Positions 31,339-55,604 of a DNA stretch of 64,000 nucleotides are shown piece by piece. Position 1 is the first letter of the stretch, and each line of letters begins with the position of its first letter. The notes beneath the pieces were generated by a model. That model saw only the letters and a program-made list of their open reading frames with translations. It ran no database searches and had not been told where the DNA came from. The DNA comes from Alkalispirochaeta sp. (GTDB lineage Bacteria > Spirochaetota > Spirochaetia > DSM-27196 > Alkalispirochaetaceae). The stretch covers positions 896,001-960,000 of the forward strand of contig OZ271854.1 of NCBI GenBank assembly GCA_965601925.1. The letters are read 5' to 3'. The position numbers and the translations under genes are program-made.

Positions 31339-32805
31339 CTAAAACTGTCGCGTCCACGCCTTGGGCCAGCGCTCCACCACGACCTTGGTCTGCGTGTAGA
31401 ACTCCACACCGTGGCGTCCCTGGGCGTGCAGATCGCCGAAGAAGCTCTCGTTCCACCCGCTAAAGGGGAAAAAGGCCATCGGAGCGGCGACCCCGATGTT
31501 GATGCCGATGTTGCCGGCGTCCGCTTGGTAGCGAAACGTGCGTGCCGTCGCACCGTCTGAGGTAAAGATACACGCCATGTTGCCGTAGGCGCGTTGGTTC
31601 ACGGCGCGGATCGCGTCGTCGAGCGAGTCCGCATGCATCAGGCTCAAGACGGGACCGAAGATCTCGGTGTGCGCGATCCGGCTGTCGAACGGGACACCGT
31701 CCAATATCGTCGGAAAGATCCAGTTGCCGTCCTCGTAGCCCGAGACCGTTTTGCCGCGCCCGTCGACGAGCACGTCGATCTTTTCTTTCTCGCCCTCGGC
31801 GATGATACCCTCGATTCGCGACTTGCTTTCGGGGGTGATGACCGGCCCCATCTCGACACCGGCGTCCAGCCCGTAGCCGACGGTACGCGAGGAGGCGATG
31901 TCGGCGATCTGCTCGGTAAATGCAGCGCGCGCGCGACCGACGGTGATCGCGACACTCGCGGCAAGACAGCGTTGTCCGGCGCAGCCGAAGGCGCTGTCGG
32001 CCATGATGCGCGTCGCCGTTTCCATATCGGCGTCCGGCATGATCACGACCGGATTTTTGGCCCCGCCCTGGCACTGCGCACGTTTCCCCTGTTCGGTAGC
32101 GCGACGATACACGTATCTCGCCACCGGCGTGCTGCCGACGAAGCTGATCGCCCGGACCAAGGGGTGATCGATCAGGGCGTCGACCGTCGCTTTTCCTCCG
32201 GCAACGAGTTGGAGTACGCCCGGAGGAAAGCCGGCGATCTCGATTAACTCAAACAGCTTGGCCGAGGTCATCGGCACACGCTCACTCGGCTTCAGGATGA
32301 AACAGTTGCCGGTAGCGACCGCGTACGGCAGGAACCAGAGCGGAATCATCCCGGGAAAGTTGAACGGCGTAATCGCCGCCACGACGCCCAGGGGTTGCCG
32401 GTACATATGCTCGTCGATTCCGCCGGCGATATCCTCGTTGTTGTAACCTTGGATCAGCGCCGGTGTGCCGCACGCGACCTCCACATTTTCGATGCCGCGA
32501 CGCAGCTCTCCCACGCTTTCTTTCTTTGTCTTACCGCATTCGTTGGTGATCGTGGTCGCAAGCTCGTCCAAGTGCTCCTCAAGCAGCGCCTTGAGACGAA
32601 ACAGGTACTGAATGCGATCGGTTACCGGTGTCGCACGCCAGTCGTTAAAGGCGCGATGCGCCGCTTCCACCGCACGCTCGACCTCGGCGGCGGGAGTCAG
32701 CACCATCCGTGCCAACTGGACGCCGCTGGCGGGATTGACGACTGGGTGATAATCCGAGGCGGGTCCGTCGGACCACGTATTGTCGATGTAATTCAATATC
32801 TTCAC
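31339..32805 (-). CDS. iolA: CoA-acylating (methyl)malonate-semialdehyde dehydrogenase
   Basis: [42 protein letters not shown] and [17 protein letters not shown]. Confidence 0.9.
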
Positions 32806-32856
32806 GCATACGCTCCTTTTCGCGTGGTTGCCGGCGGCGGCTCCGATCGGTCGCGG

Positions 32857-33945
32857 TCAGGCGTCGGGATTCGGCAGCATGAACTCGCGAACGAGGGCGC
32901 AGAGTTCCGCGTAGCTGGCGATGAACCCACGCAGGGTGCGCACCGTCGCGCCGTAGGTGTCGAACTGTGCCGGCTCCATACCGTCGACGTCGTAGGCTTT
33001 GGCAAAGTCGTCAAACTTGTCGCGTAGCTTGGCTACAAGGTCGGAGTCGACCGGATCGTCGATTCGATTACGCACGGCGATATCCGAGCCGTTGAAGCGG
33101 ACCGCCCACTTGTACGGCATGCTGCAAATGACGTCACCGCCGATAAACTCCGACCAGTGATAGTGGTTGCGGTAGGCCGCCGCCAACAGGCGCGATCGGT
33201 AGCCGCGCTCCTGAAAGTGACGATAGGCGTGCTTCATGACCGCAACGCCGGCCCACTCGAGGTAGTCGGGATTGACGATGATATCGTGTTTGGCGGCCAG
33301 GACCTTGATCCAATCGTCGACGCGTCCCACCATGATCGTCACCACCGGCGCCATCTGCGCCGTCGATTCGCCCGCCGTCTCGCGTCGCGCGAGGCCGCGT
33401 TCGACCGCCTCGGCGACGGCGATCGCTTGCGGCACGGTGAACGAAACGGTTGCGTTGATGCTGACACCCCGATAGGTAACCTCTTCCATCGCCTCGATTC
33501 CGGCACTGGTGGCCGGGATCTTGACGTTGATGTTCGGCGCCAGTGCGGCAAACGACATCGTCTGCTCCACCAACTTGTCCTTGCTGCGGAAGTACTCGGG
33601 GTTCGTCTGGATCGAGATACGGCCTTTCAAACCGTGATGCCGGTCGAAAACCGGCCGCAGGATCGCGGCGCCGGCCTGCGCCATCTCCTCTATCACTCGC
33701 CACGCAACCTGACCTTCCGTCCACGTCGGATTGTCGCCGACGATCGTCGCGATCCGATCGCGCCACTGCTTCAACTGTTGTCGTAAAACGGTGAGGACGA
33801 TCGTGGGGTTGGTCGTCGCCCCGACCGCGCCGTGCTCGACGCCGTAGCGGAGCTCGTCGGTATTGCAGGAGTCGTTCCAGTAGTCGGTAAGTGTGGTCTG
33901 AGACATATGGTGTAACGGGCTCTTGTATGCGGTCTGCGTCGTCAT
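32857..33945 (-). CDS. Transaldolase-family protein with non-canonical active-site residues
   Basis: WNDS, GATTNP, Schiff-base NINVKIPAT, NATVSF..PQA and MVGR; directly upstream of iolA. Confidence 0.85.
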   Translation of the reverse strand: MTTQTAYKSPLHHMSQTTLTDYWNDSCNTDELRYGVEHGAVGATTNPTIVLTVLRQQLKQWRDRIATIVGDNPTWTEGQVAWRVIEEMAQAGAAILRPVFDRHHGLKGRISIQTNPEYFRSKDKLVEQTMSFAALAPNINVKIPATSAGIEAMEEVTYRGVSINATVSFTVPQAIAVAEAVERGLARRETAGESTAQMAPVVTIMVGRVDDWIKVLAAKHDIIVNPDYLEWAGVAVMKHAYRHFQERGYRSRLLAAAYRNHYHWSEFIGGDVICSMPYKWAVRFNGSDIAVRNRIDDPVDSDLVAKLRDKFDDFAKAYDVDGMEPAQFDTYGATVRTLRGFIASYAELCALVREFMLPNPDA

Positions 33946-33989
33946 GTAGGTCTCCTTTCCGACGTACGATGGTACGGTTACGGAGTGTT

Positions 33990-34027
33990 TATCATATTAT
34001 CATAATATCAGACAATATACGGTGCAA
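33990..34027 (-). promoter_or_regulatory. Sigma70 promoter of the transaldolase-iolA unit overlapped by a probable FadR/GntR operator
   Basis: On -, TTGCAC (34027-34022), 17 nt, TATGAT (34004-33999). Palindrome ATATTAT-C-ATAATAT at 33994-34008; TATCA(T/G)A repeats at 33990, 33998 and 34006. Confidence 0.65.
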
Positions 34028-34032
34028 GAGAT

Positions 34033-34767
34033 TTATCCCCTCGGACTCAAGTTAAGCAGCTTGCGGGTGCGGACAAAGTGCTCGGCGTGGCGCGCGACTG
34101 CTGCGTCTACCTGCGCTTCCTCTAAGATCTGCAAAATCTCGCCGTGGTCGACCGCTGCGTCGTGTAAGCGCGTCATACTCTTGTACGACTGCGCGATCTC
34201 CTCGGTCATAAAGGCCTGCAGCGTGTGGTAGATCGCCACGAACAATCGATTACCCCCGGCGGATATGATCTGTTCGTGGAATCGGTAGTCCGCCTCGGCG
34301 ATCGCACGCTGGTCGTCGCGCTCGGCCGCCTGAGCCATCGCCTCTACCTCGCGATGCAAGCCGGCCAACACGCTTTGCGACTCCCCATCGCCCCGCCTGA
34401 CTCCCGCGGCGAGGCGGCGGAAGCAGATCGACTCGATCGCCTCGCGGAGCTCAAACACATCGACCAAGTCGTCGTCGCCCAGAAGCAACGCCCACGTGAT
34501 CGCCTCGAGGGAGATGTGCGCTCGGTCTTTCACAAACGTCCCTTTGGCGGCCTTTGATTCCAGCACCCCGAGGTGCTGAAACACCTTCATCGCCTCGCGA
34601 ATCGACGACCGGCCGACGCCGAAGCGCGTGGCGAGCTCTTGCTCCGTCGGTAGCTTGTCCCCGGGCCGGTAGTGGTCCGAGGCGATCAGTTGCTTAAGCT
34701 GCGACATCACCTGCGCGACGACCGTCTGCTGGGTAATGAGCTGGTACTGCGGTGCTACACGATTCAT
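34033..34767 (-). CDS. FadR/GntR-family transcriptional regulator
   Basis: PGDKLPTEQELATRFGVGRSSIREA HTH; FCD domain with ADYRFH and DH. Confidence 0.93.
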   Translation of the reverse strand: MNRVAPQYQLITQQTVVAQVMSQLKQLIASDHYRPGDKLPTEQELATRFGVGRSSIREAMKVFQHLGVLESKAAKGTFVKDRAHISLEAITWALLLGDDDLVDVFELREAIESICFRRLAAGVRRGDGESQSVLAGLHREVEAMAQAAERDDQRAIAEADYRFHEQIISAGGNRLFVAIYHTLQAFMTEEIAQSYKSMTRLHDAAVDHGEILQILEEAQVDAAVARHAEHFVRTRKLLNLSPRG

Positions 34768-34906
34768 TTGCTTGGCGCCCCACCGATCACGATATGTACA
34801 AGATAGGGCGAAAATCCGTGACAGGGAATCCTTCTTTCGCCCCCCGCCGCGACCGATGACTCGGGGACGCCGCCTCCGCGTCGTGTGCGGCTCGTACGGC
34901 TCCGAC

Positions 34907-36772
34907 CTAAAACCGGCGCACGTCCGGTAGGTGCGCTTCCAGCTCCTTACGCGCCGAGCGAACCCCTGCGCTGGAGGAGACTTCCGGCACGCCGACGCGC
35001 CACCAACTCTCGTATCCCCGGGTCATCGATTTTTGCGTCACCTTCACGTCGATCACGACCGGAGCCGCAGCTCGGAGACCGGCGGTCACCGCATCGGCCA
35101 ACTCGGCAAGGGTGCGGACGGAGTAACTCTCGGCACCGTAGCCACGGGCAATCGCCGCATAATCGATCGGGAGATACCCGCCGCCGAGATCGCCGGTGGT
35201 CCGATCGCGTCGACGCCACTCGTTGCCGTAGCTCCTGATACCCTGATTGGTCTGTAGGTTATCGATGACCTGAAAGCCGTTGTTATCAAAGACGATTATG
35301 ACGATCGGCAGCGCCTCCTGAATCGCGGTGACCAACTCGCTGTGGAGCATGACAAAACCGCCGTCGCCGACCATCGCTATCGCCGGTCGCCCCGGTTCGG
35401 CGAGCTTTGCGCCGACCGTGGCGTTGATCTCGTAGCCCATGCAGCTAAAACCGTACTCCACGTGATAGCTACCGCCGCTCCGGGCGCGCCACACCCGCTG
35501 CATGTCGCCCGGCAGGCTGCCGGAGGCGCCGACAACCACCGCATCGGGGGGCAGAAGCCGTTCGTTCAGCTCACCGAGCACCCGCGTTTGGCTGAGTCCG
35601 TGCGGATCCTCGGTACGGTAGAGCCGATCGACCTCGGCGTTCCAAGCGTCAATCGCCGCGGCGGGCTCGTTACGGTAGCCTGCGGTCCACCGGCGATCGC
35701 GCAACAACGGGGTGAGCTGCTCGAGCGCCGTTCGCGCGTCGGCGATAAAGGGCTCGGCATCCATTTTGTAGGCGTCAAAATCGTTGATGTTGATCGTCGC
35801 GACGCGTAGATCGGGATTCCGAAACGCGTACTTACTGGCGGTGGTGAAATCGCCGAGCCGCGTACCGACCGCCAAAAGCAGGTCGCAGTCGCGGGCGATC
35901 ACGTTCGCCGCCTCGGTACCGGTGACGCCGATACCGCCCAGGTTCAGCGGATGGTCCCACGCGATCGTGCCTTTGCCGGCCTGCGTCTCGCCGAACGGCA
36001 CGCCGAACTCCCGGGCAAACCGATCGAACTGAGCGCCGGCGTCGCTGTACCGCACTCCCCCGCCCAGAATCAGCAACGGCCGCTTGCCCGCGGCGATGAG
36101 GTCCGCCAGCCGAGTCAGAGCGGCGGTACTCAGGGAGCGCCGTTCCAGGTGGTGTACACGCTTCTCGAGAAAGGAGACGGGGTAATCGTAGCTTTCCGCC
36201 TGAACGTCCTGCGGCAACGCCAGCGTAACCGCGCCGGTGGCCGCCGGATCGGTCAGCACTCGCATCGCGTTGATCGCCGCGCTCATCAGCTGCTCCGGAC
36301 GCCCGATACGATCCCAGTACGCGCTGACCGGCTTGAACGCATCGTTGGCACTGAGCGTCAGATCGCGCGCCGACTCCACCTGCTGCAGCACCGGATCGGG
36401 CTGGCGACAGGCGAAGGTGTCCCCGGGCAAGAGCAACAGGGGAATCCGGTTGACCGTCGCGGTGGCCGCTGCCGTCACCAGGTTCATCGCACCGGGACCG
36501 ATCGAACTGGTTGCCGCGTAAATGCGACGACGATTGTTTTGCTTTGCAAATCCGATCGCCGCGTGCGCCATACCCTGCTCGCTGTGCCCTTGGCGAAAGA
36601 TCAGTCCGTGTTGCCCCTCGACGATCGCCTCGCCCAGCCCCACAACGTTACCGTGGCCGAAGATACCGAAGATGCCCTCGACGAACTTGTACTCGGTGCC
36701 GTCGACCTCCAGATACTGGTTATCCAAAAACCGTACCAACGCCTGAGCCATCGTCAGCTTGATCGTTTTCAT
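34907..36772 (-). CDS. iolD: 3D-(3,5/4)-trihydroxycyclohexane-1,2-dione acylhydrolase (ThDP-dependent)
   Basis: MKTIKLTMAQALVRFL, GIFGHGNV, RQPDPVLQQ, HVEYGFSCMGYE, GDG and YESWWRVGV. Start ATG 36772 overlaps the iolB stop. Confidence 0.96.
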   Translation of the reverse strand: MKTIKLTMAQALVRFLDNQYLEVDGTEYKFVEGIFGIFGHGNVVGLGEAIVEGQHGLIFRQGHSEQGMAHAAIGFAKQNNRRRIYAATSSIGPGAMNLVTAAATATVNRIPLLLLPGDTFACRQPDPVLQQVESARDLTLSANDAFKPVSAYWDRIGRPEQLMSAAINAMRVLTDPAATGAVTLALPQDVQAESYDYPVSFLEKRVHHLERRSLSTAALTRLADLIAAGKRPLLILGGGVRYSDAGAQFDRFAREFGVPFGETQAGKGTIAWDHPLNLGGIGVTGTEAANVIARDCDLLLAVGTRLGDFTTASKYAFRNPDLRVATININDFDAYKMDAEPFIADARTALEQLTPLLRDRRWTAGYRNEPAAAIDAWNAEVDRLYRTEDPHGLSQTRVLGELNERLLPPDAVVVGASGSLPGDMQRVWRARSGGSYHVEYGFSCMGYEINATVGAKLAEPGRPAIAMVGDGGFVMLHSELVTAIQEALPIVIIVFDNNGFQVIDNLQTNQGIRSYGNEWRRRDRTTGDLGGGYLPIDYAAIARGYGAESYSVRTLAELADAVTAGLRAAAPVVIDVKVTQKSMTRGYESWWRVGVPEVSSSAGVRSARKELEAHLPDVRRF

Positions 36773-37632
36773 CACCTCTCCTTCCGTTCGGTTGTCCGGT
36801 GGGCAAGCACCGTTTCCAACGCCGCATCGGGCCATATCGGTGCGTCGGAGTCCATCAACCAGGTGTGCTCGCGTCGAAAGACGCGCGAATCGGGGCCGAA
36901 CCGATCGCCGGGTAGATGGGGAATCGCCCATACGTAATACAAGGCGTAACCCGGTGCCGCGCACTGAGCGTGCGTCACGCCCGGAGGGATCGCGTACGTG
37001 TCGCCGTCGGTGATCTTGTACACTTCGTCCTCGCACTCGGCGTGGCCGTGCCCGTGGGGCGGGAAGACCCGGTAGTGATAAATCTCCGGGTGGGCGTGGT
37101 CGTGAGGGGGATAGCTGGACCACTTGCCGGGAAAGTTGACCACCTCCCCCAGTACCATCTGGCTGTACGGTGCGGTGGCGGCGTCGAAGATCGTACGTAC
37201 AATGCGCGTGCCGGTCTCTTGTAAGGTGCCCTCGCCGAACCGTTCGCTACGGTAGTCTCCGGGTCGCCACAGACGCGCCGGAAACGACTCGGCGTTGGGA
37301 CGTGCCTGCACTACGAGCTCAGCCTCACCGTCCAACGCCTCGACGCGAACCTGAGCGCCGGGACCGGCGTGTAACGCAACCGGATCGTGGTCCAGCACGT
37401 TGGTACGCTCCCACTCGACGTCCGCTTCGGTGTCGCCTTCGACCCAGGTAAAGCGCACCGCACCGGTCAACAGCAGTACGGCGCGCTCGCGATCCGCATC
37501 CGACTCCCACATCTCGCCGGCGGCCAGCTTCAAGATGCCGAAGTCCATCAGCATCTCCTCGTGGGGTCCGCCGATCGCCGTGATCGGTTGATATCCCGGG
37601 GCAAACGGTCCGTCGTGTTTGATAATCGCCAT
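36772..37632 (-). CDS. iolB: 5-deoxy-glucuronate isomerase (KduI/IolB family)
   Basis: LGEVVNFPGKWSSYPPHDH..PEIYHY and HAQCAAPGYALYYVWAI. Confidence 0.9.
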   Translation of the reverse strand: MAIIKHDGPFAPGYQPITAIGGPHEEMLMDFGILKLAAGEMWESDADRERAVLLLTGAVRFTWVEGDTEADVEWERTNVLDHDPVALHAGPGAQVRVEALDGEAELVVQARPNAESFPARLWRPGDYRSERFGEGTLQETGTRIVRTIFDAATAPYSQMVLGEVVNFPGKWSSYPPHDHAHPEIYHYRVFPPHGHGHAECEDEVYKITDGDTYAIPPGVTHAQCAAPGYALYYVWAIPHLPGDRFGPDSRVFRREHTWLMDSDAPIWPDAALETVLAHRTTERKER

Positions 37633-37655
37633 ATCGGCACCTCCTAACGTCTGAA

Positions 37656-38675
37656 TCAGTACCGAACGCCGATCGCCCTCCGACTACGGAGGCTCTCAGT
37701 CGCCGCATACGCCACGGCGGTCGCCCGGGTGCCGTCCTGCACAGTCACCTCCGGCGACCGTCGGTCTCGAATACACGCGGCAAACTCGAGAAACTCGTTG
37801 CGGAACGCCTCGGCAAAGCGCTCCGGAAAGGACTGAACGACAGGCTCTCCGACACCGTCGCCGGTGTATACCACCGCGCGCGTGCTACGCGGCACCCCGT
37901 CGATCCGAATCGCACCCTCGGTACCGACGACCTCGGTCTCGATGTGATACCCGTGGGCCGCGGTGCGACCGGCATAAAACAGCCCCATCGCGTTACCGTC
38001 GAACTGCATCAGCGCCGTGGCGTTGTCCACATCGCCGACCTCGCCGAATTGCGGGTATTTGAAGGTACCGCCGATCGCGTGCACCATCCGCACCTCGGCC
38101 TGCAGCAACCAGCGCGCCAGATCGATATCGTGGATCATCATGTCGAGGAAGATCCCCCCGCTGGTGGCGGCGAACTGGATCGCACCGGCGGCAAAGCGAT
38201 CGGGGTCGAGCCCGTAGGCGCGCACCAAAAACGGCTCGCCGATGACTCCCGCGCGAATACGCTCGACCGCATAGCGGTAGGAACGGTCGTACCGCCGCAT
38301 GAATCCCAACATGAACCGCTGATCCGGATGGTCGGCCACGACCGCCTCGGCCCGGCGGCACTGTTCGATCGTCGTTCCCAACGGCTTCTCACAGAACACG
38401 TGCAGCCCGGCCTCGATCGCCATAACGATTTGATCGGTGTGAACGGCGCTGGACGAGGCGATCACCACGCCGTCAAGGTCGGCCTCCTCGATCATGCGTT
38501 CGTACTCTCCGTAGCCGGCGGCCACATCCAGCTCCGCTTGGGCGCGCGCGACCTCGGTGGCAATGGTGCTGCACACCGCGGATAGACGAACTCCCGGCAC
38601 GCCGAACCGCAGAATGCGCGCGTGCTCCAAGCCCAAGCGGCCCAGACCGACGATACCCAAACGGATCGGTGTCAC
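37656..38675 (-). CDS. Inositol dehydrogenase-like Gfo/Idh/MocA oxidoreductase (second iolG paralogue)
   Basis: GLGRLG, FCEKP, GFMRRYD and SGGIFLDMMIHDID. Confidence 0.85.
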   Translation of the reverse strand: MTPIRLGIVGLGRLGLEHARILRFGVPGVRLSAVCSTIATEVARAQAELDVAAGYGEYERMIEEADLDGVVIASSSAVHTDQIVMAIEAGLHVFCEKPLGTTIEQCRRAEAVVADHPDQRFMLGFMRRYDRSYRYAVERIRAGVIGEPFLVRAYGLDPDRFAAGAIQFAATSGGIFLDMMIHDIDLARWLLQAEVRMVHAIGGTFKYPQFGEVGDVDNATALMQFDGNAMGLFYAGRTAAHGYHIETEVVGTEGAIRIDGVPRSTRAVVYTGDGVGEPVVQSFPERFAEAFRNEFLEFAACIRDRRSPEVTVQDGTRATAVAYAATESLRSRRAIGVRY

Positions 38676-39688
38676 GGCATCACCTCGCGCACCTCGACGC
38701 GGCGAGCCTCCGCAAACGACTTTTGCGCCGCCAGCGCGATATAGATCGGTGCCAGTCCGTCCCGACCGGTGACGGGAACCGGCCCGTCGCCGTTGATCGC
38801 GGCCACAAACGCCCGCGACTCCGCGACGAACGCCTCGCCGTAGCGCTCCAAGAAGAAGTGGAGCGGGTTACGGCCGTGGCTGCCGTCTCGGTCGAAGATC
38901 TGCACGCGGTTCGACAGATCGTTCTCGACCCTGACCATTCCCGCGCTCCCGAACACCTCACTGCGTTGATCGTACCCGTAGACGGCGCGGCGACTGTTAT
39001 CGATGACCGCGATCGCGCCCGATTCGAGCCAGAGTGTGACGACCGCGGTATCGATGTCGCCGGCCGCTCCGATCGCGGGATCAACCAACACCGTCCCGGC
39101 GGCGTGCACCGCCGTCACCTCACTGGCGGAAAGAAAGCGTACCATGTCGAAATCGTGAATCATCATGTCGAGAAAGAGCCCGCCCGACGCCGCGACGTAT
39201 TCGGGGGGCGGCGGCTCCGGGTCGCGGCTAGTGATCTTAATCAGCTCGACCTTCCCGACTCGTCCCTCGCGTACCGCCCGGGCGGCCCCGGCGTGGTTGC
39301 GGTCGAATCTCCGGTTGAATCCGACCTGTAACAAGACGCCGGCCTCGCGAACCGCATCCAACGCCTCTTGAACCCGCAGCGGATCGAGATCGATCGGTTT
39401 TTCGCAAAACAGATGTTTGCCGGCTCGCGCGCCGTCGATAACGATCCGGGCGTGCGTATCGGTGCTGGAACAGACGTAAATCGCCTCGACAGCCGGATCG
39501 GACAACAGGTCGCGGTGCGACCGATAAGAGACCGGTATCCCCAACTCATCGAGCCACGGCGCTTCGGCGGCGACGGGGTCGGAGACCGCGCTCACCGTCG
39601 CCCCGGGGACGCGCTGCGTCAGCACCTCGGCGTGTAGTCGGCCGATCCGACCGATTCCGACGATGCCGATTCCAATACTACGTTCCAT
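38672..39688 (-). CDS. iolG: myo-Inositol 2-dehydrogenase
   Basis: GIGRIG, FCEKP, GFNRRFD, SRDP.PPP.EY, GGLFLDMMIHDFD, YGYDQR and FFLERY. Confidence 0.9.
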   Translation of the reverse strand: MERSIGIGIVGIGRIGRLHAEVLTQRVPGATVSAVSDPVAAEAPWLDELGIPVSYRSHRDLLSDPAVEAIYVCSSTDTHARIVIDGARAGKHLFCEKPIDLDPLRVQEALDAVREAGVLLQVGFNRRFDRNHAGAARAVREGRVGKVELIKITSRDPEPPPPEYVAASGGLFLDMMIHDFDMVRFLSASEVTAVHAAGTVLVDPAIGAAGDIDTAVVTLWLESGAIAVIDNSRRAVYGYDQRSEVFGSAGMVRVENDLSNRVQIFDRDGSHGRNPLHFFLERYGEAFVAESRAFVAAINGDGPVPVTGRDGLAPIYIALAAQKSFAEARRVEVREVMP

Positions 39689-39725
39689 CTTACATTCCTT
39701 TCCCGGGCTCTCCGCGTTCCGCGGA

Positions 39726-40760
39726 CTACCCGCACCCGCAGGTACTACTCGAATCTCTCACGACCAGCTGCGGTTGCAGCGAGATATGTCGCGGTCGGTG
39801 CAAACGACCGCCGGCTCGATCCTCAATCATCTCGATAAGGCGCTCGCACGTCATAAACGCAACCGCCTCCGACGGTTGTCGCACCGTGGTAAGGGACGGG
39901 TGTAATATCGCGGCCAAGGGCGTATCATCGTACCCGACCACCGCGATATCGTCGGGCACCGAGAGCCCCGCGGCGGCGCACCCTTGGATCGCACCGATCG
40001 CCAACAGGTCGTTCAGTGCAAACACCGCGTCGGCGCGGCGAATCGTATCGAGATTGTCGCTCACCAGCCGGTACCCGGTTTCCAGCGAAAAATCGCCGTT
40101 GACGACCTCGATCTCTGTGGCCCGATCGGCGTGGGTGAGCGCCTTGCGAAGCCCGTCGGCGCGTTGACGAAACTCCAGCGCACGATCGGGATCCCCCAGC
40201 ACGACGATCCGACGATAGCCGCAACAGTAGAAATGGTCCCCGACCAACATACCGCCGCGCTCGTGGTCGACAAAGACCCAATCGACGTCGGGCCGCGCCG
40301 ACTCGGGCGGATAGTGCGAAAAGACGTACGGAGTCTCGGTCTCCTTCAAGAACGCCTCGGTCTGCGATTCGATCGCGGTGCCGATGATAATCAGACCGTC
40401 GACCTTTCCGCGCCGTACGATCCGGCCGATGTTGTCCGAATGGTCGTTGCGGTTGCGGGCAAAGCCGACGATCAAGTCCAGTCCGGCGCGCTCCAGGGCG
40501 CGACGCAGATTGTTGTGCAGACTGGAGTGGTAGAGCTGCACGTGAAAATGGTCAAACTCTTCCGGCAAGATGACGCCGATCGTACCGACGCGCCGCGTGA
40601 CCATCCCACGGGCACCGGCGTTGAACTCGAAGCCCTGCCGATCGGCGATCGACTTGATGCGTCGCTTGGTCGCCTCGGCTACCAGTGGGCTGTCGTTCAG
40701 ACTACGGGACACGGTGGACACGCTTACCCCCGCGATCTGCGCAATATCCTTGATCGTCAT
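39726..40760 (-). CDS. LacI-family regulator of the inositol cluster
   Basis: MTIKDIAQIAGVSVSTVSRSLN, VPDDIAVVGYDD and LTTVRQP. Confidence 0.94.
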   Translation of the reverse strand: MTIKDIAQIAGVSVSTVSRSLNDSPLVAEATKRRIKSIADRQGFEFNAGARGMVTRRVGTIGVILPEEFDHFHVQLYHSSLHNNLRRALERAGLDLIVGFARNRNDHSDNIGRIVRRGKVDGLIIIGTAIESQTEAFLKETETPYVFSHYPPESARPDVDWVFVDHERGGMLVGDHFYCCGYRRIVVLGDPDRALEFRQRADGLRKALTHADRATEIEVVNGDFSLETGYRLVSDNLDTIRRADAVFALNDLLAIGAIQGCAAAGLSVPDDIAVVGYDDTPLAAILHPSLTTVRQPSEAVAFMTCERLIEMIEDRAGGRLHRPRHISLQPQLVVRDSSSTCGCG

Positions 40761-40785
40761 GTATGCCTCGCGTCGCCGCCATCGT

Positions 40786-41802
40786 TTAGCTCTTTTGAAT
40801 GTTCTTGCGAACGTCGATGATGACGGCAGCGACTATGATAATTGCCTGCATTACTTGTTGAAAGTCTGCCGAGACATTGAGTAGATCGAGTCCGTTTTTC
40901 ATCACCCCGACGATCAGCGCCCCTACCAGCGCTCCGGCCGCGGTACCGAGACCGCCTTGGAGGCTCGTACCGCCGATGACCGACGCGGCGATCGCATCCA
41001 GCTCGTACATCACGCCCAAACCGGGTTGGCCCGACCCGATCCGCGAGGTTAAGACGATCGAAGATACCGCCGCGAGGAATCCGGCGTAGGCAAACACCTG
41101 TATCAGATAGCGGTCGACGTTGATACCGGAGACTACGGCGGCCCGGCGGTTGCTGCCCAGAGCGTACGTATAGCGCCCCCACAGTGTGTGTTTCAGGATG
41201 ATATGCGTTACCACCACGCAGACCAACAACACCCAAACGGGATTCGGAATGCCGAGAATCGAACCTTGACCGATCATCATGAAACGCTGCGCGAGGCTGC
41301 CGCGCGGCCGGCCGTCGGAGTAGATGAACGCCCAGCCCCTGGCAAAGGTCATCATGCCGAGGGTGGCGATAAATGCCGGAATTTTCGCCTTGGCCACGAG
41401 AAGACCGTTCACCAGCCCGGCCCCGGCGCCGACCGCCAGGCCGATCAGTATCACCGGCACGATCGGCCACGGCGACCCGCCGGCAAAGAGTCGGTCCGGC
41501 GCATCGATCGTCTGGATCAAACTGCCGACGATCACCGACACCAGGGCGACGACCGAACCCGATGAGAGGTCGATCCCTCCGGTAATGATCACCATCGTCA
41601 CGCCCAATGCGATAATCGCCACCACGCTGACCTGCCGCAGCACGTTGAGCAAATTGCGTACGCGGAGAAACACGCCGCCGGTCAGAATCGAAATGAGAAT
41701 GACGAGACCGACGAGAATCAACAGTATGCTGTAGTTGCGGAAGAAGGTGTTCCAATCGATTTTGCCGCCGCGGATCTTCGCTGGTCCTTCCACTTCACTC
41801 AT
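40786..41802 (-). CDS. Sugar (inositol) ABC permease, RbsC type
   Basis: GIDLSSGS, IPAFIATLG and YELDAIAASVIGGTSL.GG.G. Confidence 0.93.
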   Translation of the reverse strand: MSEVEGPAKIRGGKIDWNTFFRNYSILLILVGLVILISILTGGVFLRVRNLLNVLRQVSVVAIIALGVTMVIITGGIDLSSGSVVALVSVIVGSLIQTIDAPDRLFAGGSPWPIVPVILIGLAVGAGAGLVNGLLVAKAKIPAFIATLGMMTFARGWAFIYSDGRPRGSLAQRFMMIGQGSILGIPNPVWVLLVCVVVTHIILKHTLWGRYTYALGSNRRAAVVSGINVDRYLIQVFAYAGFLAAVSSIVLTSRIGSGQPGLGVMYELDAIAASVIGGTSLQGGLGTAAGALVGALIVGVMKNGLDLLNVSADFQQVMQAIIIVAAVIIDVRKNIQKS

Positions 41803-41813
41803 CGGGGTGCTCC

Positions 41814-43340
41814 TTAGTAGTAGTGCACGTCGGTAAACGTGTGTAACGGTTCACCGGTGGCCATGTGCAGAATCTTCTCCTGGCTCGCCTCATCCCGGTC
41901 GATCTCGCCGACCTTGCGTCCCTCGTGCATCACCACGATCCGGTCCGACATCGCAAGAATCTCCGGCAGCTCGGAGGAGACCATAATGATCGCCTTGCCG
42001 CGTCCCGCCAAATCGCCCATCAGGCGATAGATCTCGCTCTTGGCCCCGACATCGATACCCCGCGTCGGCTCGTCGAGAATCAGCACCTCGGGCTCGGTAG
42101 CCAGCCAACGCGACACCAACACCTTCTGCTGATTGCCTCCGCTGAGGTACATCACCAGCTGTTCCAAGCTCGGTGTCTTGATCGCAAGACGGTCCAGCGC
42201 CCGGTCGCAGATCGAACGGATCGCGCGGTGGTCGATAAACGGGCCGTGCATGTGACGCGCTACGCTCGCGATCGCAATGTTGTCGCGAACCGAAAGGTTA
42301 AGGTACGCGCCGGAGCCCTTGCGATCCTCGGTAAGAAAGGCCATGCGGTACCCGATCGCGTCGTGGGGGCTACGGATATCGACCGTCCGGCCGTGGATCT
42401 TAACGGTACCGGCGTGGTGCGGCGTGACACCGAACAGCGCCTCCATCACTTCGGTCCTGCCGGCACCGATCAGACCGGCAAAGCCGAGTATCTCTCCCCG
42501 GCGCACGGAAAAATCGATCTCTTCGAACACTCCGCGACGCGTCAGCCCCTCCACCTCCAACACAACGTCGCCGGGGACCGCCGTCTCCTTGTGGAAAAAA
42601 CTGTCCATCGAACGGCCGACCATCATACGAATGAGCGACTCCTTGGTCAGGTTCGACGATCGATCCGATCCGACATATTCTCCGTCGCGATATACCGTGA
42701 CCTCGTCGGTGACGGCGAACACCTCGTCCATCTTGTGTGTGATGTAGATCACCGCAACTCCGCGCCCCTTGAGGTCGCCGATGATCCGAAAGAGGTGCGC
42801 CACCTCCTTTTCCGTGAGCGCCGAGGTCGGCTCGTCCATGATCACCAACTTGGCGTTGTACGAGACCGCCTTGGCGATCTCGACCAACTGCATCTGCGCC
42901 ACGCTTAGCGTGCCCATCGTATCGGTGGGTCGGAGGTCGATCTGTAGGTCCCGTAGGATCGCCGCGGTCGCGTCGTTGATCGCCTTGTGGTCGATGAGCT
43001 TGAGCTTGGTCAGTTTTTCACGACCGAGAAAGATGTTTTGCGCAACGGTCATATACGGGAGCGGGTTCAACTCCTGGTGAATCATCGAGATGCCCAACGC
43101 GAGCGACTCGTGAATCGTCGACATCGACACCGGCGAACCGCAAAATCGAATGGTCCCGCCGTCCGGGCGGTACAGTCCGATCGCGATCTTCATCAGGGTC
43201 GACTTACCCGCTCCGTTCTCGCCCATCACACCGTGGACCGTCGCCGGCCGGACGCGTAGGTCCACCCCCTTGAGCGCTTTGACGCCGGGAAACGTTTTGA
43301 CGATTCGTTCCAGCTCGAGCACGTAGTCCGACACCGCCAC
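41814..43340 (-). CDS. Sugar (inositol) ABC ATPase, RbsA/MglA type
   Basis: GENGAGKST, DEPTSAL, LSGGNQQK and DEPTRGIDVGAK. Confidence 0.95.
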   Translation of the reverse strand: MAVSDYVLELERIVKTFPGVKALKGVDLRVRPATVHGVMGENGAGKSTLMKIAIGLYRPDGGTIRFCGSPVSMSTIHESLALGISMIHQELNPLPYMTVAQNIFLGREKLTKLKLIDHKAINDATAAILRDLQIDLRPTDTMGTLSVAQMQLVEIAKAVSYNAKLVIMDEPTSALTEKEVAHLFRIIGDLKGRGVAVIYITHKMDEVFAVTDEVTVYRDGEYVGSDRSSNLTKESLIRMMVGRSMDSFFHKETAVPGDVVLEVEGLTRRGVFEEIDFSVRRGEILGFAGLIGAGRTEVMEALFGVTPHHAGTVKIHGRTVDIRSPHDAIGYRMAFLTEDRKGSGAYLNLSVRDNIAIASVARHMHGPFIDHRAIRSICDRALDRLAIKTPSLEQLVMYLSGGNQQKVLVSRWLATEPEVLILDEPTRGIDVGAKSEIYRLMGDLAGRGKAIIMVSSELPEILAMSDRIVVMHEGRKVGEIDRDEASQEKILHMATGEPLHTFTDVHYY

Positions 43341-43366
43341 TCCTCACGCGCCGCCGCGACGCATGC

Positions 43367-43398
43367 GCTCGGCAGCTCCGGAACCGGAGAAGCCGAGC
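43367..43398 (-). other. Stem-loop after the inositol binding-protein gene
   Basis: GCTCGGC-ag-CTCCGG-aa-CCGGAG-aa-GCCGAGC interrupted inverted repeat between the binding-protein and ATPase genes. Confidence 0.5.
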
Positions 43399-43416
43399 CG
43401 TCGTCTTGAGAGTTTT

Positions 43417-44349
43417 CTACCGGTAGTCCCCGTAGTTATCGCCGGTGACCGGCTCGAACGGGATCTCGACAAAGTTGTCGACCGCCTCGCCGTTAACCAG
43501 CCGCAACGCGGTATCGACCGCGCCGCGCCCCTGGGCGCCCGCATTTTGAAAGACCGTCATATCCAGACGGCCGGATGCGATAAACTGAAGCGCATCGGGG
43601 GTTGCGTCCACGCCGGTTACGATCACCTGGTCCTTGAGCCCGGCCTCCTCGAGCACGAGAACCGCGCCGATCGCCATTTCGTCGTTGTTGGCGATAATCG
43701 CGTCGATCCGATCGCCGCTGTTGAGCCAGTTTTCAACGACGGCGACCGCCTCGGCGCGTTGGAAATCGGCGGTTTGCTCACGAATCACGGAGATATCGGG
43801 GTACTGGGCAAAGGCGTCTTTTGCTCCCTGGGTACGACCGATCTGCGGTGCGGAACCCATCGAACCCATCAGGATCGCCACGTTGCCTCGACCGCCCAGC
43901 TCGCCGGCGACAAACGCCGCCTGCAACGCACCGGCCACCGGCTCCGGCGACGCGACGGCGACGATCAGGTCACCCTCGAGTGCCGTATCGTCGGGGCGAC
44001 GGTTGACATACACCATCGGAATGCCCGCCTCGCGCGCCTGGCGGCTCATCTCGGGTGCCAAGGTCTGATCGATCACATGGATAATGATCGCATCGACGCC
44101 CTGGGTAATGAAGTTCTCCACCTGCTGCAACTGCTGGTTGGGATCGCGATCTCCGTTGGCGGCGCTCACCGTTACGCCACGCGACTCGGCCTCATCCATC
44201 AGCTCGTCGAGTAGAAAGCGCATAAACACGTCGTTGAAGTCCTCGATCGTGACACCGAGGGTAATCTCGCCGTCCTCCCCACTTCCGGCGGCAAAGAGGG
44301 GGCTCGCAACGATCAGCGACATGCACACGAACGTTAGCAGTCGTCTCAT
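43417..44349 (-). CDS. Sugar (inositol) ABC substrate-binding protein, RbsB type
   Basis: Signal peptide, QQLQQVENFITQGVDAII, ANNDEMAIGA, GVDATPDA and TVFQNA..QG. Confidence 0.92.
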   Translation of the reverse strand: MRRLLTFVCMSLIVASPLFAAGSGEDGEITLGVTIEDFNDVFMRFLLDELMDEAESRGVTVSAANGDRDPNQQLQQVENFITQGVDAIIIHVIDQTLAPEMSRQAREAGIPMVYVNRRPDDTALEGDLIVAVASPEPVAGALQAAFVAGELGGRGNVAILMGSMGSAPQIGRTQGAKDAFAQYPDISVIREQTADFQRAEAVAVVENWLNSGDRIDAIIANNDEMAIGAVLVLEEAGLKDQVIVTGVDATPDALQFIASGRLDMTVFQNAGAQGRGAVDTALRLVNGEAVDNFVEIPFEPVTGDNYGDYR

Positions 44350-44375
44350 GCTGTCCTCCTTATTGGAATAACTTC

Positions 44376-44570
44376 AGCGTAGGAGCACTTTGTGCAGTTG
44401 TCAATGAAAAACAAACGTTTGCATTCAAAAAAACGATTTCAAGATGAAATGTTATTATTTATAATACAATAATTTATTAACGATTAACAGTGGATCAAGA
44501 GTGTTTTCAAATTGCCTCTATGCAAACGCTGCTTTGCAAACTTGCAAAAAGCGGTCAACAGAGGTAGGCT
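44376..44570. promoter_or_regulatory. Divergent promoters of the iol ABC operon and iolE with LacI-type operators
   Basis: On -, TTGACA (44404-44399), 17 nt, TACGCT (44381-44376). On +, TTGCAA (44542-44547), 17 nt, TAGGCT (44565-44570). Palindrome CAAACGTTTG at 44412-44421 and TGCAAACGCTGC at 44521-44532; AT-rich spacer. Confidence 0.65.
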
Positions 44571-44598
44571 GCATTCTCGGAGGGAAGGAGGACATGTT

Positions 44599-45498
44599 GT
44601 GATTCGTATCGCCAACGCGCCGTGTTCTTGGGGCGTTTTAGAGTTCGATCTGGCCGGTGAGACGGTCGACTACCGGCAATTCTTGAATGAGCTCGTGGAG
44701 ACCGGCTATGCCGGAACGGAGTTGGGCGATTGGGGATTTATGCCTACCGATGCCGCGGCACTGGGCGACGAGCTTCGGGCGCGAAACGTCGAGTTGGTCG
44801 GCGCGTTCGTACCGATGGCGTTGGCCGACCCGACGCGTCACGAAGAGGGTATTCGGGCCGGGGAGCGGACCGGATCGCTAATGGCGTCCGCCGGCTTTCC
44901 GGAGGCGTTGGTGGTCCTCGCCGACGACAACGGCACCGTCGCCGCGCGCACGGACAACGCGGGACGTGTCACGCCCGATACCGCCCTGGACGCCGACGAC
45001 TGGCGGCGCGTCACCGATGCGACGGCGCTGTTTGCACGCCGGGTTCGTGACGCGTCCGGCCTATCGACCGTCTTCCACCACCACTGCGCCGGCTATGTCG
45101 AAACGCCGGCCGAGATCGAAAAACTACTGGCCTCCACATCGGAGGAGACGTTGGGATTGGTGCTCGATATGGGACACTACCGGTTTGCCGGAGGGTATCC
45201 GGAAGCCGCGTTACGCTTGTTCGGCGATCGTATCCGACACATCCATTACAAGGACTGTTCGACGCAGCTTGCGGCGCAATCGCGAGCCGAAGGGTGGGAC
45301 TACTTCACGTCGGTCGGCAAAGGCGTCTTCTGCGAGCTGGGCACCGGTACGGTCGATTTTGCCGCTATCACCGCGGAGCTGACCCGCAGAGGATACGACG
45401 GATGGATCGTCGTCGAGCAGGACGTGCTCCCGGGTATGGGTAGTCCCAAGGAGACGGCGCGTCGCAATCGAGCGTTCCTGAACTCTCTTGGGTTGTAG
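44599..45498 (+). CDS. iolE: Inosose dehydratase-like TIM-barrel protein (IolE/MocC family)
   Basis: IANAPCSWG, GYAGTELG, FHHH..GYVET, LDMGH, HIHYKD, FCELGTG.VDF and GWIVVEQD. GTG start after GGAGG. Confidence 0.8.
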   Translation: MIRIANAPCSWGVLEFDLAGETVDYRQFLNELVETGYAGTELGDWGFMPTDAAALGDELRARNVELVGAFVPMALADPTRHEEGIRAGERTGSLMASAGFPEALVVLADDNGTVAARTDNAGRVTPDTALDADDWRRVTDATALFARRVRDASGLSTVFHHHCAGYVETPAEIEKLLASTSEETLGLVLDMGHYRFAGGYPEAALRLFGDRIRHIHYKDCSTQLAAQSRAEGWDYFTSVGKGVFCELGTGTVDFAAITAELTRRGYDGWIVVEQDVLPGMGSPKETARRNRAFLNSLGL

Positions 45499-45542: not shown

Positions 45543-46736
45543 CTACGTATGTCGCGGTTGCACGCTCTCGTCCAGTATCGGCAACTCCTCAAAATCACCG
45601 ATCGTGACGAGATACATATTCGAGTATGCCGTAAGGTCCGACGTGTAGAGGATGCTCCTTCCATCGGGTGTAAACCGCGGGTGGGGGTGGGCGTGCTGGT
45701 CGTTGAAAGTGCTGCGATGATAGGCGAGGATGCGCGGTCCCTCGTACGCCGTACCGTTCCATCGAAAGAGCTGAATAAAGGGCTGCGCGACTCCCTGATG
45801 GGTGAAGACCGCCGCCGGCGAGCCGTCTCCCACCACGAGCGATTCGTCCAAACTGTGAAAGTGGGTCGAGCGGAAGGGGAAGTGCCGCTCCACGTGATCT
45901 CGGTTGTCCCACGTGATGAATCCGAAGACGTGATCCCCCGTACCGTCGCGTCGCGCCCCGTGGTAGCCGATCCGCCGTCCGTCGGCAAACCAGTACTCGT
46001 GTCCCACCGCCAAGTCGAGGCCGTCGTCCTGGGGGCGGATCTTCCACGACTCGCCGGTCTCGATATTGAGCCCCCAGATGCGCTGCTCGACGAGGTCCCA
46101 CGGACCCTCGTGACAGAAGGTCATGATCCGCGGCAATGAGGGTGAGGTGTTGAGGTGCGTGATATATCGACGGTCCTCGTGCAGTACCTCCGTCTCTCCC
46201 GTTTGCACATCGGTCCGCGTGATGCGGGTGAGGGGGCGTCCGTCGTAGAGTCTCCTGAAGCCGGAGTAAGAGAAGGTGATCCCCCCGTCTCCCGACTCGA
46301 TCGGTTCCTGGAGCTTGCTGATCACGTAGCGACCGTCGGCGGTCGGGTTGGCACGCTCCCCGGGGTCCATGCCTTGGGGTGCCTCGTAGATCGTCCGCTC
46401 GTCACGGCTCGCGGGATCGAGTTCCATCAATCGTCGTCCGTCCCAGAAGTAGAGGCGCGCGTTTGCCTCGCTCCAGCAGGCGTGGGGGCGCCGACGCTCG
46501 GTAAAATCGGTCAGCTGGGTAATCGCGTAGTCGTCGAGATCGTAGCGGTAGATGTTGCTCCGGTTCCCACGGTCGGAGGTGAACAGGAACGAACGGCCCG
46601 ATGCGAGCCAGCACGGATCGGTAAAGTAGAAGTGGTTGGAATGTCCCAAGTAGTCGGTCAGACGAGTTATCTCCCGCCCGCTGTACTCGTCGCGATACCG
46701 AAGAATCGGGTCGCGATAGACGGTGCCTTTTGCCAT
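45543..46736 (-). CDS. Oligogalacturonate lyase-family beta-propeller
   Basis: HFYFT, FCHEGPW..VEQRIW, GHEYW and QHAHPHPRFTPDG; no signal peptide. Confidence 0.8.
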   Translation of the reverse strand: MAKGTVYRDPILRYRDEYSGREITRLTDYLGHSNHFYFTDPCWLASGRSFLFTSDRGNRSNIYRYDLDDYAITQLTDFTERRRPHACWSEANARLYFWDGRRLMELDPASRDERTIYEAPQGMDPGERANPTADGRYVISKLQEPIESGDGGITFSYSGFRRLYDGRPLTRITRTDVQTGETEVLHEDRRYITHLNTSPSLPRIMTFCHEGPWDLVEQRIWGLNIETGESWKIRPQDDGLDLAVGHEYWFADGRRIGYHGARRDGTGDHVFGFITWDNRDHVERHFPFRSTHFHSLDESLVVGDGSPAAVFTHQGVAQPFIQLFRWNGTAYEGPRILAYHRSTFNDQHAHPHPRFTPDGRSILYTSDLTAYSNMYLVTIGDFEELPILDESVQPRHT

Positions 46737-46742
46737 ATGCCC

Positions 46743-47474
46743 TCACAGTCCCTCGCCGCGGAGAAACTCCACAAACGGACCGGGGCGGTCGAGATTGACC
46801 ATATCGTAGTTCAACTCGACGACCCTCCGGTACAACGCGTGGAGCTCCTCGGCGTTCGCGGCGCTCTTTCCAAAGACGTTCGCCATCATCTTTATACCCA
46901 GCTCGCGACAGGCCGCCGCCACCGCCGGCGTCGCCTCGTTCGGCCCCTGTTCGACGATCTGATGGTCGAAGAGCGCTTTGTGGCGGCGCACATCCTCAGG
47001 GGTGCGACTGTTCATCTTGAGCGGAATGTCCGGCGCCAGCGCGCGAAACCGCTGCGCTCTGCGATCGAAGGGAAACCAAAAGAAGACGTGGGCCTCCATG
47101 CCGCGCTCGCGAATCATCCGCACGATACGGCGAAGACTGCCAGCCTTGACGTCCAAGTAGACCTTTGTACGGCCTCGTGCCCAGTCCAGGAACGCCTCCA
47201 GACGCGGCACACGCTCCCCCGCAAACTCGGGTGAGAACCACGACCCGGCGTCGAGGCGATCGATGTAGCGCGACGTCCGCAGAGCGATGGGACCGGTGCC
47301 GTCGGTGGTGCGGTTGAGGGTGGGATCGTGCATGACGTAGTGCTCGCCGTCCAGGCTTCGCCAGACGTCGATCTCTACGTAGTCCGCTCCCAGATCGACG
47401 CACGCTTGGGCGGAGGCCATGGTGTTCTCCGGAGCGATGTCGGCCGCCCCGCGGTGCACGACGATTTCCATCAC
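46743..47474 (-). CDS. Glycerophosphodiester phosphodiesterase (GDPD) family
   Basis: HRGA...PENT, EIDV, HD.TL.RTT.G.G, LDAGSWF..EFAGERVP.L. Confidence 0.92.
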   Translation of the reverse strand: MMEIVVHRGAADIAPENTMASAQACVDLGADYVEIDVWRSLDGEHYVMHDPTLNRTTDGTGPIALRTSRYIDRLDAGSWFSPEFAGERVPRLEAFLDWARGRTKVYLDVKAGSLRRIVRMIRERGMEAHVFFWFPFDRRAQRFRALAPDIPLKMNSRTPEDVRRHKALFDHQIVEQGPNEATPAVAAACRELGIKMMANVFGKSAANAEELHALYRRVVELNYDMVNLDRPGPFVEFLRGEGL

Positions 47475-50142: not shown

Positions 50143-50200
50143 CCGACCCTCCGTTCTGAAAAACGCAACTAAGCTATCATGCGTTATATTGTGAATTCTT

Positions 50201-50366: not shown

Positions 50367-50382
50367 AAAAGGGAGGTACGAC

Positions 50383-52293: not shown

Positions 52294-52319
52294 GGCGGCG
52301 TCATACAACGGACCATGAT

Positions 52320-52345: not shown

Positions 52346-52365
52346 GCGGGTGAGAGACGCGAAGT

Positions 52366-55596: not shown

Positions 55597-55604
<8 letters not shown>

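Follow-up and report, generated by a model that had tools for sequence, protein, structure and literature searches.

Introduction

The bacterial breakdown of myo-inositol is described as an ordered pathway in which IolB yields 2-deoxy-5-keto-D-gluconate (DKG) (PMC8355322), and iolC, the gene of the kinase that acts next, is counted among the four core genes held to be essential for inositol catabolism (PMC9430895). That survey calls iolBCDE essential and ascribes missing core genes to assembly, the accessible part of its text never mentioning a transaldolase, and full-text searches, with most subscription papers outside their coverage, found no transaldolase described in inositol catabolism. 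Here we analyze a 64,000-nucleotide stretch of the genome of Alkalispirochaeta sp. (contig OZ271854.1, positions 896,001 to 960,000; hereafter the window), which holds an inositol cluster that combines the genes of the upper pathway with tal, a gene for a large transaldolase-family protein of 362 aa (32857..33945, minus strand).

The comparisons presented below describe a recurrent non-orthologous replacement of the IolC/IolJ step by the uncharacterised transaldolase-fold family to which tal belongs. We put at roughly 0.7 the probability that tal cleaves unphosphorylated DKG into malonate semialdehyde and a dihydroxyacetone unit, a substrate and a chemistry that we infer.

Results

The first-pass annotation of the window had named two iolG genes, iolE, iolD, iolB, iolA, ABC uptake genes and a transaldolase-family gene, and the open reading frame (ORF) list and family scans locate all of these at the positions it gave, with corrected starts for iolD (36772) and iolE (44599). 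Its placement of tal next to iolA also holds, as tal ends 51 bp before iolA (31339..32805, minus strand), which codes for a CoA-acylating (methyl)malonate-semialdehyde dehydrogenase (TIGR01722, 564 bits, cut-off 448.5). The sole gene between tal and iolD, that of a GntR/FCD regulator (34033..34767, minus strand; PF00392 and PF07729), had gone unmentioned, along with a LacI gene and an operator ahead of tal. The upper pathway is represented on the minus strand by iolD, coding for trihydroxycyclohexanedione acylhydrolase (34907..36772; TIGR04377 889 bits, cut-off 715), an iolB-like 5-deoxyglucuronate isomerase gene of a divergent subfamily (36772..37632; PF04962 E 5e-50, TIGR04378 78 bits, below the cut-off of 205), the second inositol dehydrogenase gene iolG2 (37656..38675; TIGR04380 335 bits, below the cut-off of 355) and the inositol 2-dehydrogenase gene iolG1 (38672..39688; 431 bits in the same family), and on the plus strand by a divergently transcribed iolE-like inosose dehydratase gene (44599..45498; TIGR04379 182 bits, below the cut-off of 290). 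The iolE and iolB products belong to divergent subfamilies that are present in iolC operons too: the IolE-like protein is 53-61% identical to iolE products of three iolC operons (61% for L135 and L147; L numbers denote loci) and 23% to a fourth, and the IolB-like protein is 43-44% identical to those of iolC operons L151 and L152, and 34% and 23% to two others.

The window contains no PfkB kinase and no class II aldolase, as had been claimed: tblastn of the 64 kb with five IolC, four IolJ and ten own-genome PfkB/FBA proteins as queries and Pfam scans of the 77 ORFs were negative. The absence of IolC extends to the whole genome (one contig, 5.05 Mb, 96.7% complete), where the best of 12 weak PfkB matches reaches 115 bits against the TIGR04382 cut-off of 300, where no DUF2090 was found, and where five real IolC proteins from fetched operons find matches of at most 29% identity. 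The genome's own PfkB kinases were considered as a hidden IolC and rejected for their low identity and other settings (a ribokinase over cut-off, for example). Its four class II aldolases, 0.47-3.8 Mb from the cluster and in other settings, two of them in dihydroxyacetone kinase (DhaKL) clusters, were rejected as a hidden IolJ on the same grounds. DhaKL, glycerol dehydrogenase and a pyrophosphate-dependent phosphofructokinase are all encoded, as are three PF00923 proteins, namely tal, a paralogue 30% identical to it and a small one amid sulfoquinovose-pathway-like genes. A sulfoquinovose-like cluster of this genome (C1:4054000-4076000; L155, L156) holds a small transaldolase, an aldehyde dehydrogenase, an SftI-like isomerase, glycerol dehydrogenase, transketolase and a SauS-like dehydrogenase.

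To avoid selecting on tal, sampling for co-occurrence was anchored on iolD, with genomes at least 90% complete drawn evenly. IolD-positive genomes made up 7 of 301 in Spirochaetota, the phylum of this locus, 51 of 251 in Anaerolineae, 51 of 201 in Prolixibacteraceae and 15 of 300 in Clostridia, which we take to be the class of genome G014. The 117 genomes kept exclude the four centre genomes and three Prolixibacteraceae that had been reached through tal, all seven of which have tal and lack IolC. Scored by IolC over its cut-off and tal at E<1e-100, 77 of these have IolC only, 25 tal only, 4 both and 11 neither (Fisher p 4e-13, which is overstated because related genomes are not independent). 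In the same order, the counts are 37/10/0/0 in Prolixibacteraceae, 31/11/3/5 in Anaerolineae, 6/3/1/4 in Clostridia and 3/1/0/2 in Spirochaetota. Among the 25 genomes with tal only, tal lies within 4 kb of iolD in 22 and on a different contig in the other 3, and among 40 iolD-negative controls none carries tal at E<1e-100, two distant matches reaching 37% and 33% identity. In this sample tal orthologues go with iol genes and tend to be absent where iolC is present, as the kinase-free lower pathway suggested in the first-pass annotation would lead one to expect.

Four iolD-positive genomes without IolC or tal (G345, G826, G1026 and G965; loci L116, L117, L118 and L124) have another gene set in common. 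Beside the iol genes all four carry a phosphoglycerate kinase-like and a type II glyceraldehyde-3-phosphate dehydrogenase-like gene; three have a malic-enzyme-like gene there, three a LarA-family nickel racemase, and L124 has transketolase halves. This set may represent a third lower inositol route.

The replacement can be followed gene by gene in Prolixibacteraceae, where iolC-type operons read iolJ-iolB-iolC-iolD in 7 of 7 fetched and tal-type operons read iolJ-iolB-tal-iolD (L144, L145), iolB-tal-iolD (L078, L142, L143) or tal-iolB-iolD (L058, L068, L070, L071, L079, L146). Here tal takes the position of iolC or of iolJ in operons that otherwise correspond, their transporter, iolA, iolE and iolG being unchanged. 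The IolD proteins are 82-89% identical between the two operon types, but the inserted tal genes are of two kinds, that of L142 being only 50% identical to those of L068 or L144, which suggests at least two separate insertions. L144 and L145 have lost iolC and kept iolJ (75% identity to iolJ of an iolC operon), so the kinase can be lost while iolJ stays.

It is also important to consider that tal could replace IolJ only, as a class I aldolase for DKG 6-phosphate made by an unrecognised kinase elsewhere in the genome. Such a role would suit the six Bacteroidales operons with tal in the iolJ slot, the two operons that keep iolC beside tal and lack iolJ (L126 and L127), the 12 weak PfkB matches noted above and the FSA-like Gln113 described below, and four fetched Anaerolineae iolC operons (L147-L150) also lack iolJ. 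It is harder to reconcile with the 25 of 29 tal-bearing genomes of the iolD-anchored set that lack any IolC, with the lack of a recurring kinase in 80 tal loci, with the loss of iolC but not iolJ in L144 and L145, and with the retention, in L126 and L127 too, of N164 and T203, residues of the C1-hydroxyl pocket. We regard this reading as improbable and prefer cleavage of the unphosphorylated acid.

Gene fusions were also found among the relatives of tal. Four are IolE-tal proteins, of which P0004 (a singleton) and P0308 score over the IolE cut-off and P0305 and P0306 under it, and some of these may be read-through errors; an IolO epimerase-tal fusion (P0303) has three members. Three of the eight longer forms (LacI-tal, BamA-tal and a partial fusion of tal to an aldehyde dehydrogenase) were set aside as likely products of read-through or assembly; a fourth has no identifiable second domain.

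The protein itself matches PF00923 at 134 bits (cut-off 27; E 1e-38), a TIM barrel with Schiff-base Lys, Asp and Asn residues, and scores below the cut-off of every transaldolase and fructose 6-phosphate (F6P) aldolase (FSA) family. The AlphaFold model, built with 108 relatives, has a transaldolase fold (pLDDT 96), its top Foldseek matches being large transaldolases of Neisseria and Corynebacterium (TM-score 0.79-0.84, 20-21% identity), and an ESM Atlas search returned generic transaldolase clusters only. The family is large, with 7,972 of 8,000 scored 90% clusters at E<=1e-60. Ten key residues (D25, N46, Q113, K142, N164, T203, M205, R208, A257 and R259) are invariant or nearly so in the 108 relatives; D25, N46, K142, R208 and R259 are invariant, and Q113 and M205 are the same in all 108 sequences. 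In the alignment the catalytic Glu of transaldolase corresponds to Q113, and the Ser-Phe-Phe motif of that enzyme to T203-I204-M205, so that tal lacks the Glu and Phe that mark the classical enzyme (EC 2.2.1.2); for this comparison we used what we take, in part, to be the E. coli transaldolase numbering. The signature of the sulfofructose transaldolase SftT (a small subunit, an Asp-Lys-Glu triad and a Trp-Ala-Arg sulfonate motif) is likewise absent from tal, with its 362 aa, Gln113 and Arg208.

FSA relies on a Gln-Thr-Tyr water triad (PMC13259622), of which tal has the Gln and the Thr and carries Met at the Tyr position. Because the Glu position holds Gln and the FSA Tyr position holds Met, tal is without both known acid-base residues. 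A single Phe-to-Tyr change makes TalB an aldolase, and the phosphate site of TalB consists of two Arg and one Ser (PMC3962226). Both of these arginines are kept in tal. A257 presumably stands in place of the Ser, and as evidence it is weak because the motif behind this mapping is one we take as given and because the small PF00923 protein of the same genome also has Ala there. By the residues compared, the transaldolase-fold protein tal lies outside SftT, the classical transaldolases and FSA.

The conserved phosphate-site arginines would also fit an F6P aldolase or an ordinary transaldolase in support of the pathway (regenerating glyceraldehyde 3-phosphate (GAP), balancing triose and hexose phosphates), with DKG cleaved otherwise. 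An F6P aldolase role has been proposed for a Faecalicatena protein with the same Asp/Gln/Lys/Asn/Thr spacing (Borusak et al., PMC11659671), the cluster of which has glycerol dehydrogenase and dihydroxyacetone (DHA) kinase; tal is, moreover, the sole PF00923 gene in 2 of 5 genomes checked, and transketolase is paired with it at some loci. The Faecalicatena authors proposed that activity without an assay, and the FSA tyrosine is Met in 108 of 108. Housekeeping predicts neither the exclusion of iolC nor the absence from 40 of 40 iolD-negative controls, and no other candidate lyase recurs in tal-type iol operons. We give such a supporting role a small chance and retain DKG as the probable substrate.

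A scan of GTDB genomes with tal returned 248 relatives, of which the best 80 loci (54-70% identity) were kept, from Spirochaetota, Chloroflexota, Bacteroidota, Bacillota, Acidobacteriota, Planctomycetota, Fusobacteriota, a proteobacterial metagenome-assembled genome (MAG) and a Promethearchaeota archaeon. iolD lies within 10 kb of tal in 31 of the 80; by our labelling, 34 of 81 rows have iolB or iolD in the vicinity, and a further 7 have iolE or an inositol-type binding protein there. A real IolC/IolJ pair occurs at one of the 80 loci (L044), DhaK, DhaL and GldA at none, and no kinase recurs across them, an FGGY kinase being found 2.7-6.6 kb off and on the opposite strand in three. For 50 of the 80 loci, a choice made by hand in which 41 lean to iol settings, the genomes were searched, giving IolD in 41 and IolC over cut-off in 5, four of these IolD-positive; four further tal genomes include three with IolD, and the same three have IolC.

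The partners of tal outside complete iol clusters are informative about its product. Five loci without iolA (L045, L050, L073, L075, L130) carry a SauS-like CoA-acylating aldehyde dehydrogenase and/or decarboxylase subunits in its place, which is compatible with conversion of malonate semialdehyde to malonyl-CoA. In L045, L073 and L075 tal adjoins a methylmalonyl-CoA-decarboxylase-like carboxyltransferase, the SauS-like dehydrogenase is found in L045 and L073, and L073 adds a biotin carrier and a Na+-pump beta subunit; these genes suggest a route from malonate semialdehyde through malonyl-CoA to acetyl-CoA with sodium pumping. Since these outside settings frequently finish with IolA, or with decarboxylase subunits and a CoA-acylating dehydrogenase as in L045 and L073, the product of tal would be malonate semialdehyde or a close analogue.

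Further settings of tal relatives were seen. In nine loci (L002-L004, L018, L033, L034, L038, L043, L048), none with iolD nearby, a UxuB-type dehydrogenase accompanies tal together with either IolA or a SauS-like enzyme, possibly a route for 2-deoxygluconate or other hexonates. Five (L007, L041, L055, L073, L077) have tal-family members behind a xanthine-dehydrogenase-like molybdoenzyme and transketolase, four of them forming a separate clade with altered active-site residues. L009 has IolN over cut-off near tal, which like the IolO-tal fusion is a link to the Thermotoga-type inositol route, and two acidobacterial operons (L040, L047) of a Zn-dehydrogenase, iolE-like, iolG-like, tal and a DegT-family aminotransferase possibly serve aminocyclitol catabolism.

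The 87 bp before tal hold a putative GntR/FadR-type operator (33998..34019, minus strand), and the same site recurs ahead of tal in all 12 GntR-linked relatives that were examined. The matrix derived from the sites of these 12 scores the window site at 38 bits against 18.6 for the next best in the genome, the seed pattern having been picked after the window site was seen. That second site (C1:4948436), which hardly exceeds the background of 17.2 bits, lies before glpF-glpK and a divergent oxidoreductase, a weak hint that the predicted C3 unit may leave through glycerol. The GntR/FCD regulator, for which DKG may be the effector, accompanies tal in spirochaetes and shares 51-66% identity with the regulators encoded immediately before tal in L001-L004, L007, L010 and L015. 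With an operator of its own, gntR-tal-iolA would be a separately controlled module joined to an upper cluster under LacI control.

Such a module might serve another 5-keto acid (fructuronate, 5-ketogluconate, or DKG from 2-deoxygluconate) and lie beside iolD by chance. This would account for the operator being the sole strong site in the genome, for the nearest relatives that have a UxuB-type dehydrogenase and no iolD, and for uxuB-uxaC-uxaE lying 12-16 kb off in the window; an IolO epimerase-tal fusion is known among the relatives, and L018 is flanked by a GntP permease and a glycerate kinase. Set against it, the partner of tal is an IolA of the methylmalonate-semialdehyde dehydrogenase type, the substrate of which arises only from the 2-deoxy acid; this genome, with iolD and iolB, encodes no known means of using DKG apart from this unit; and the same regulator is part of complete iolE-gntR-iolB-iolD-tal-iolA operons in L005 and L006 and neighbours divergent iol clusters in L059 and L060. 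A chance neighbourhood seems unlikely to us, although it is compatible with cleavage of DKG by tal, and both can hold. The IolA proteins of L033 and L048, which are non-iolD settings, are 74-75% identical to the window IolA.

The remaining genes of the cluster, all on the minus strand, are those of the LacI-family regulator of the upper iol genes (39726..40760; PF00356 and PF13377), an ABC permease (40786..41802; PF02653), an ABC ATPase (41814..43340; PF00005) and a sugar-binding protein (43417..44349; PF13407). Elsewhere in the window, 15701-20514 carries uxaE-uxaC-uxuB-like hexuronate genes and a DeoR regulator, adjoining a two-component system and a TRAP transporter, and 45543-56676, directly beyond iolE, codes for an oligogalacturonate-lyase-like protein, a glycerophosphodiester phosphodiesterase, a HAD hydrolase, a divergent peptide-type ABC system and a 586-aa protein with no Pfam match. 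A generic promoter and terminator scan gave results at chance level.

Discussion

In the kinase-free lower pathway that we propose, the upper steps would be standard, with IolG, IolE, IolD and IolB converting myo-inositol to DKG (5-deoxy-D-fructuronate), and the transaldolase-family protein would replace IolC and IolJ together. Unphosphorylated DKG would be bound through its C5 as a Schiff base by Lys142 and then cut between C3 and C4, and malonate semialdehyde would leave for conversion by IolA to acetyl-CoA and CO2, with Arg208 and Arg259 holding the carboxylate where transaldolases hold phosphate. By our own reasoning, DKG is a 2-ketose with glucose-type C3/C4 and a terminal carboxylate, from which the 3S,4R configuration follows. 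Transaldolases form and cleave 3S,4R bonds (PMC3962226).

Two fates of the bound dihydroxyacetone unit can be envisaged. At slightly better than even odds it would be transferred to GAP to give F6P, a fate that is favored by the missing Tyr and by the failure to find a DHA kinase gene beside tal at any of the 80 loci or anywhere in 28 of 57 tal-type genomes. At slightly under even odds it would be released and salvaged by DhaKL or through glycerol, as suggested by Gln113, the enrichment of DhaK, the DHA kinase and glycerol dehydrogenase of the Faecalicatena cluster and the weak glpF-glpK site. DhaK is present in 29 of 57 tal-type genomes vs. 3 of 23 iolC-type controls, so that it is enriched and not required, in a comparison confounded by taxonomy (by hand tally, 4/16 vs. 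1/12 in Bacteroidales and 13/21 vs. 2/11 in Anaerolineae). If the C3 unit goes to GAP, organisms with pyrophosphate-dependent phosphofructokinase would save one ATP per inositol; the present genome has this enzyme, but of 5 genomes checked only 2 had it over cut-off.

Several observations weigh against the proposal. Both known acid-base residues are absent from tal, with no substitute recognised. About half of the tal relatives lie outside iol clusters, IolC is kept in 7 of the 44 tal-bearing, IolD-positive genomes reached from the tal side, tal, iolC and iolJ stand side by side in L044, the tal-iolB-iolC-iolD operons of L126 and L127 retain the kinase, and one isolate genome has four tal-family-like paralogues. 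The genomes of the iolD-anchored sample are in part related and most are MAGs, and the exclusion does not reach significance for the 14 Clostridia (p 0.56) or the 6 Spirochaetota. At the locus itself, tal-iolA has its own predicted GntR operator, and the nearest relative of tal, L001 (70%), comes from a genome with iolE-iolG-iolD-iolC and iolJ about 35 kb away. FastTree, with long-branch warnings, groups the window tal with spirochaete copies outside iolD clusters, which adjoin a UxuB-type dehydrogenase and a SauS-like aldehyde dehydrogenase, and this setting is our main reservation for this particular locus.

Of the 117 genomes in the iolD-anchored sample 36 lack iolC, and as 25 of these 36 carry tal, a lower pathway with no kinase would be widespread among environmental anaerobes, where it is at present mistaken for incomplete assembly. 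Since tal is without the residues that separate transaldolase from F6P aldolase, an assay or structure would bear directly on that mechanistic question, and the enzyme could give a new dihydroxyacetone-dependent biocatalyst. A wider reading, which we consider doubtful, is that the tal family forms a large functional class of the transaldolase superfamily, as yet without a name, in which a third catalytic layout (Gln and Met) serves to cleave unphosphorylated acid-ended ketoses across inositol, 5-keto-hexonate (UxuB/IolO) and sulfoquinovose settings. If so, inositol breakdown would be completed without a kinase in an Asgard archaeon and in seven or more bacterial phyla, members in UxuB/IolO settings would cleave 5-keto-hexonates, and the Faecalicatena-type member would split 5-deoxy-5-sulfoxylulose, the sulfonate twin of DKG, to sulfoacetaldehyde and thereby join both branches of the sulfoquinovose pathway.

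Comparison with Known Systems

The canonical IolG-E-D-B-C-J-A pathway of Bacillus subtilis and Anaerostipes (PMC8355322, PMC9430895) has IolG, IolE, IolD, IolB, IolA and uptake in common with this locus, as well as C3-C4 cleavage to malonate semialdehyde, which for tal is proposed. It differs in that the locus has no IolC kinase, linked IolJ class II aldolase or DUF2090 fusion, and in that the cleavage would act on the unphosphorylated acid through a Schiff-base enzyme. Two apparent parallels among described organisms were rejected. For Megamonas, the text of PMC13617567 gives iolC and iolJ as undetected, but in rows MGYG000308111_00095-00097 of its supplementary table S2 iolD is followed at once by a PfkB of the iolC type and a class II aldolase. 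Dysosmobacter is without iolJ, but DKG 6-phosphate was detected in it, and a transaldolase goes unmentioned in the accessible part of that report (PMC13311982). The organisms of these two papers and of PMC12130570, as far as their accessible parts go, use or may use IolC.

The large transaldolases of Corynebacterium glutamicum (3r5e) and Neisseria gonorrhoeae (3clm, 7bbx) have the Asp, Asn, Lys, Asn, Thr, Arg core in common with tal, in which Glu is replaced by Gln and S-F-F by T-I-M and which scores 117 bits against their cut-off of 367. FSA of E. coli has Gln at the transaldolase Glu position, as tal does, and accepts unphosphorylated donors; it differs by its triad Tyr (PMC13259622), Met in tal, which reaches 45 bits against a cut-off of 246.

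The parallel with sulfofructose transaldolase drawn in the first-pass annotation stands for the logic of the pathway and falls for family membership, the active site of tal matching neither transaldolase nor F6P aldolase. The SftT/SqvA sulfo-transaldolase pathway (PMC12890257, PMC11659671) likewise combines an isomerase, kinase-free removal of dihydroxyacetone from an anionic ketose and an aldehyde dehydrogenase. SftT has about 220 aa, a catalytic Glu and a Trp-containing sulfonate motif, unlike the 362 aa of tal with Gln and Arg at those places, and its match to 8bc2-8bc4 is short and local only.

A closer counterpart is the 'second transaldolase' F2 of Faecalicatena sp. DSM22707 (IMG 2956859251), with D23, Q111, K140, N162 and T201 (PMC11659671). 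As these five residues match D25, Q113, K142, N164 and T203 at a constant offset of 2, F2 very probably belongs to the same family as tal, the comparison resting on reported residue positions (five of five spacings agree) and not on the F2 sequence itself. F2 differs in that it lies in a sulfoquinovose cluster, is induced by sulfoquinovose and was read as an F6P aldolase without an assay (PMC11659671). A Faecalicatena-type sulfoquinovose cluster with a tal-family member 46% identical to tal is found in genome G984 (L132:1854-12835), together with GH31, a small transaldolase, an SftI-like isomerase, transketolase halves, an RpiB-like protein and an iron-dependent alcohol dehydrogenase; this member could cleave 5-deoxy-5-sulfoxylulose to sulfoacetaldehyde. 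The cleavage proposed for tal could supply a function for the unassigned, sulfoquinovose-induced Faecalicatena protein as well.

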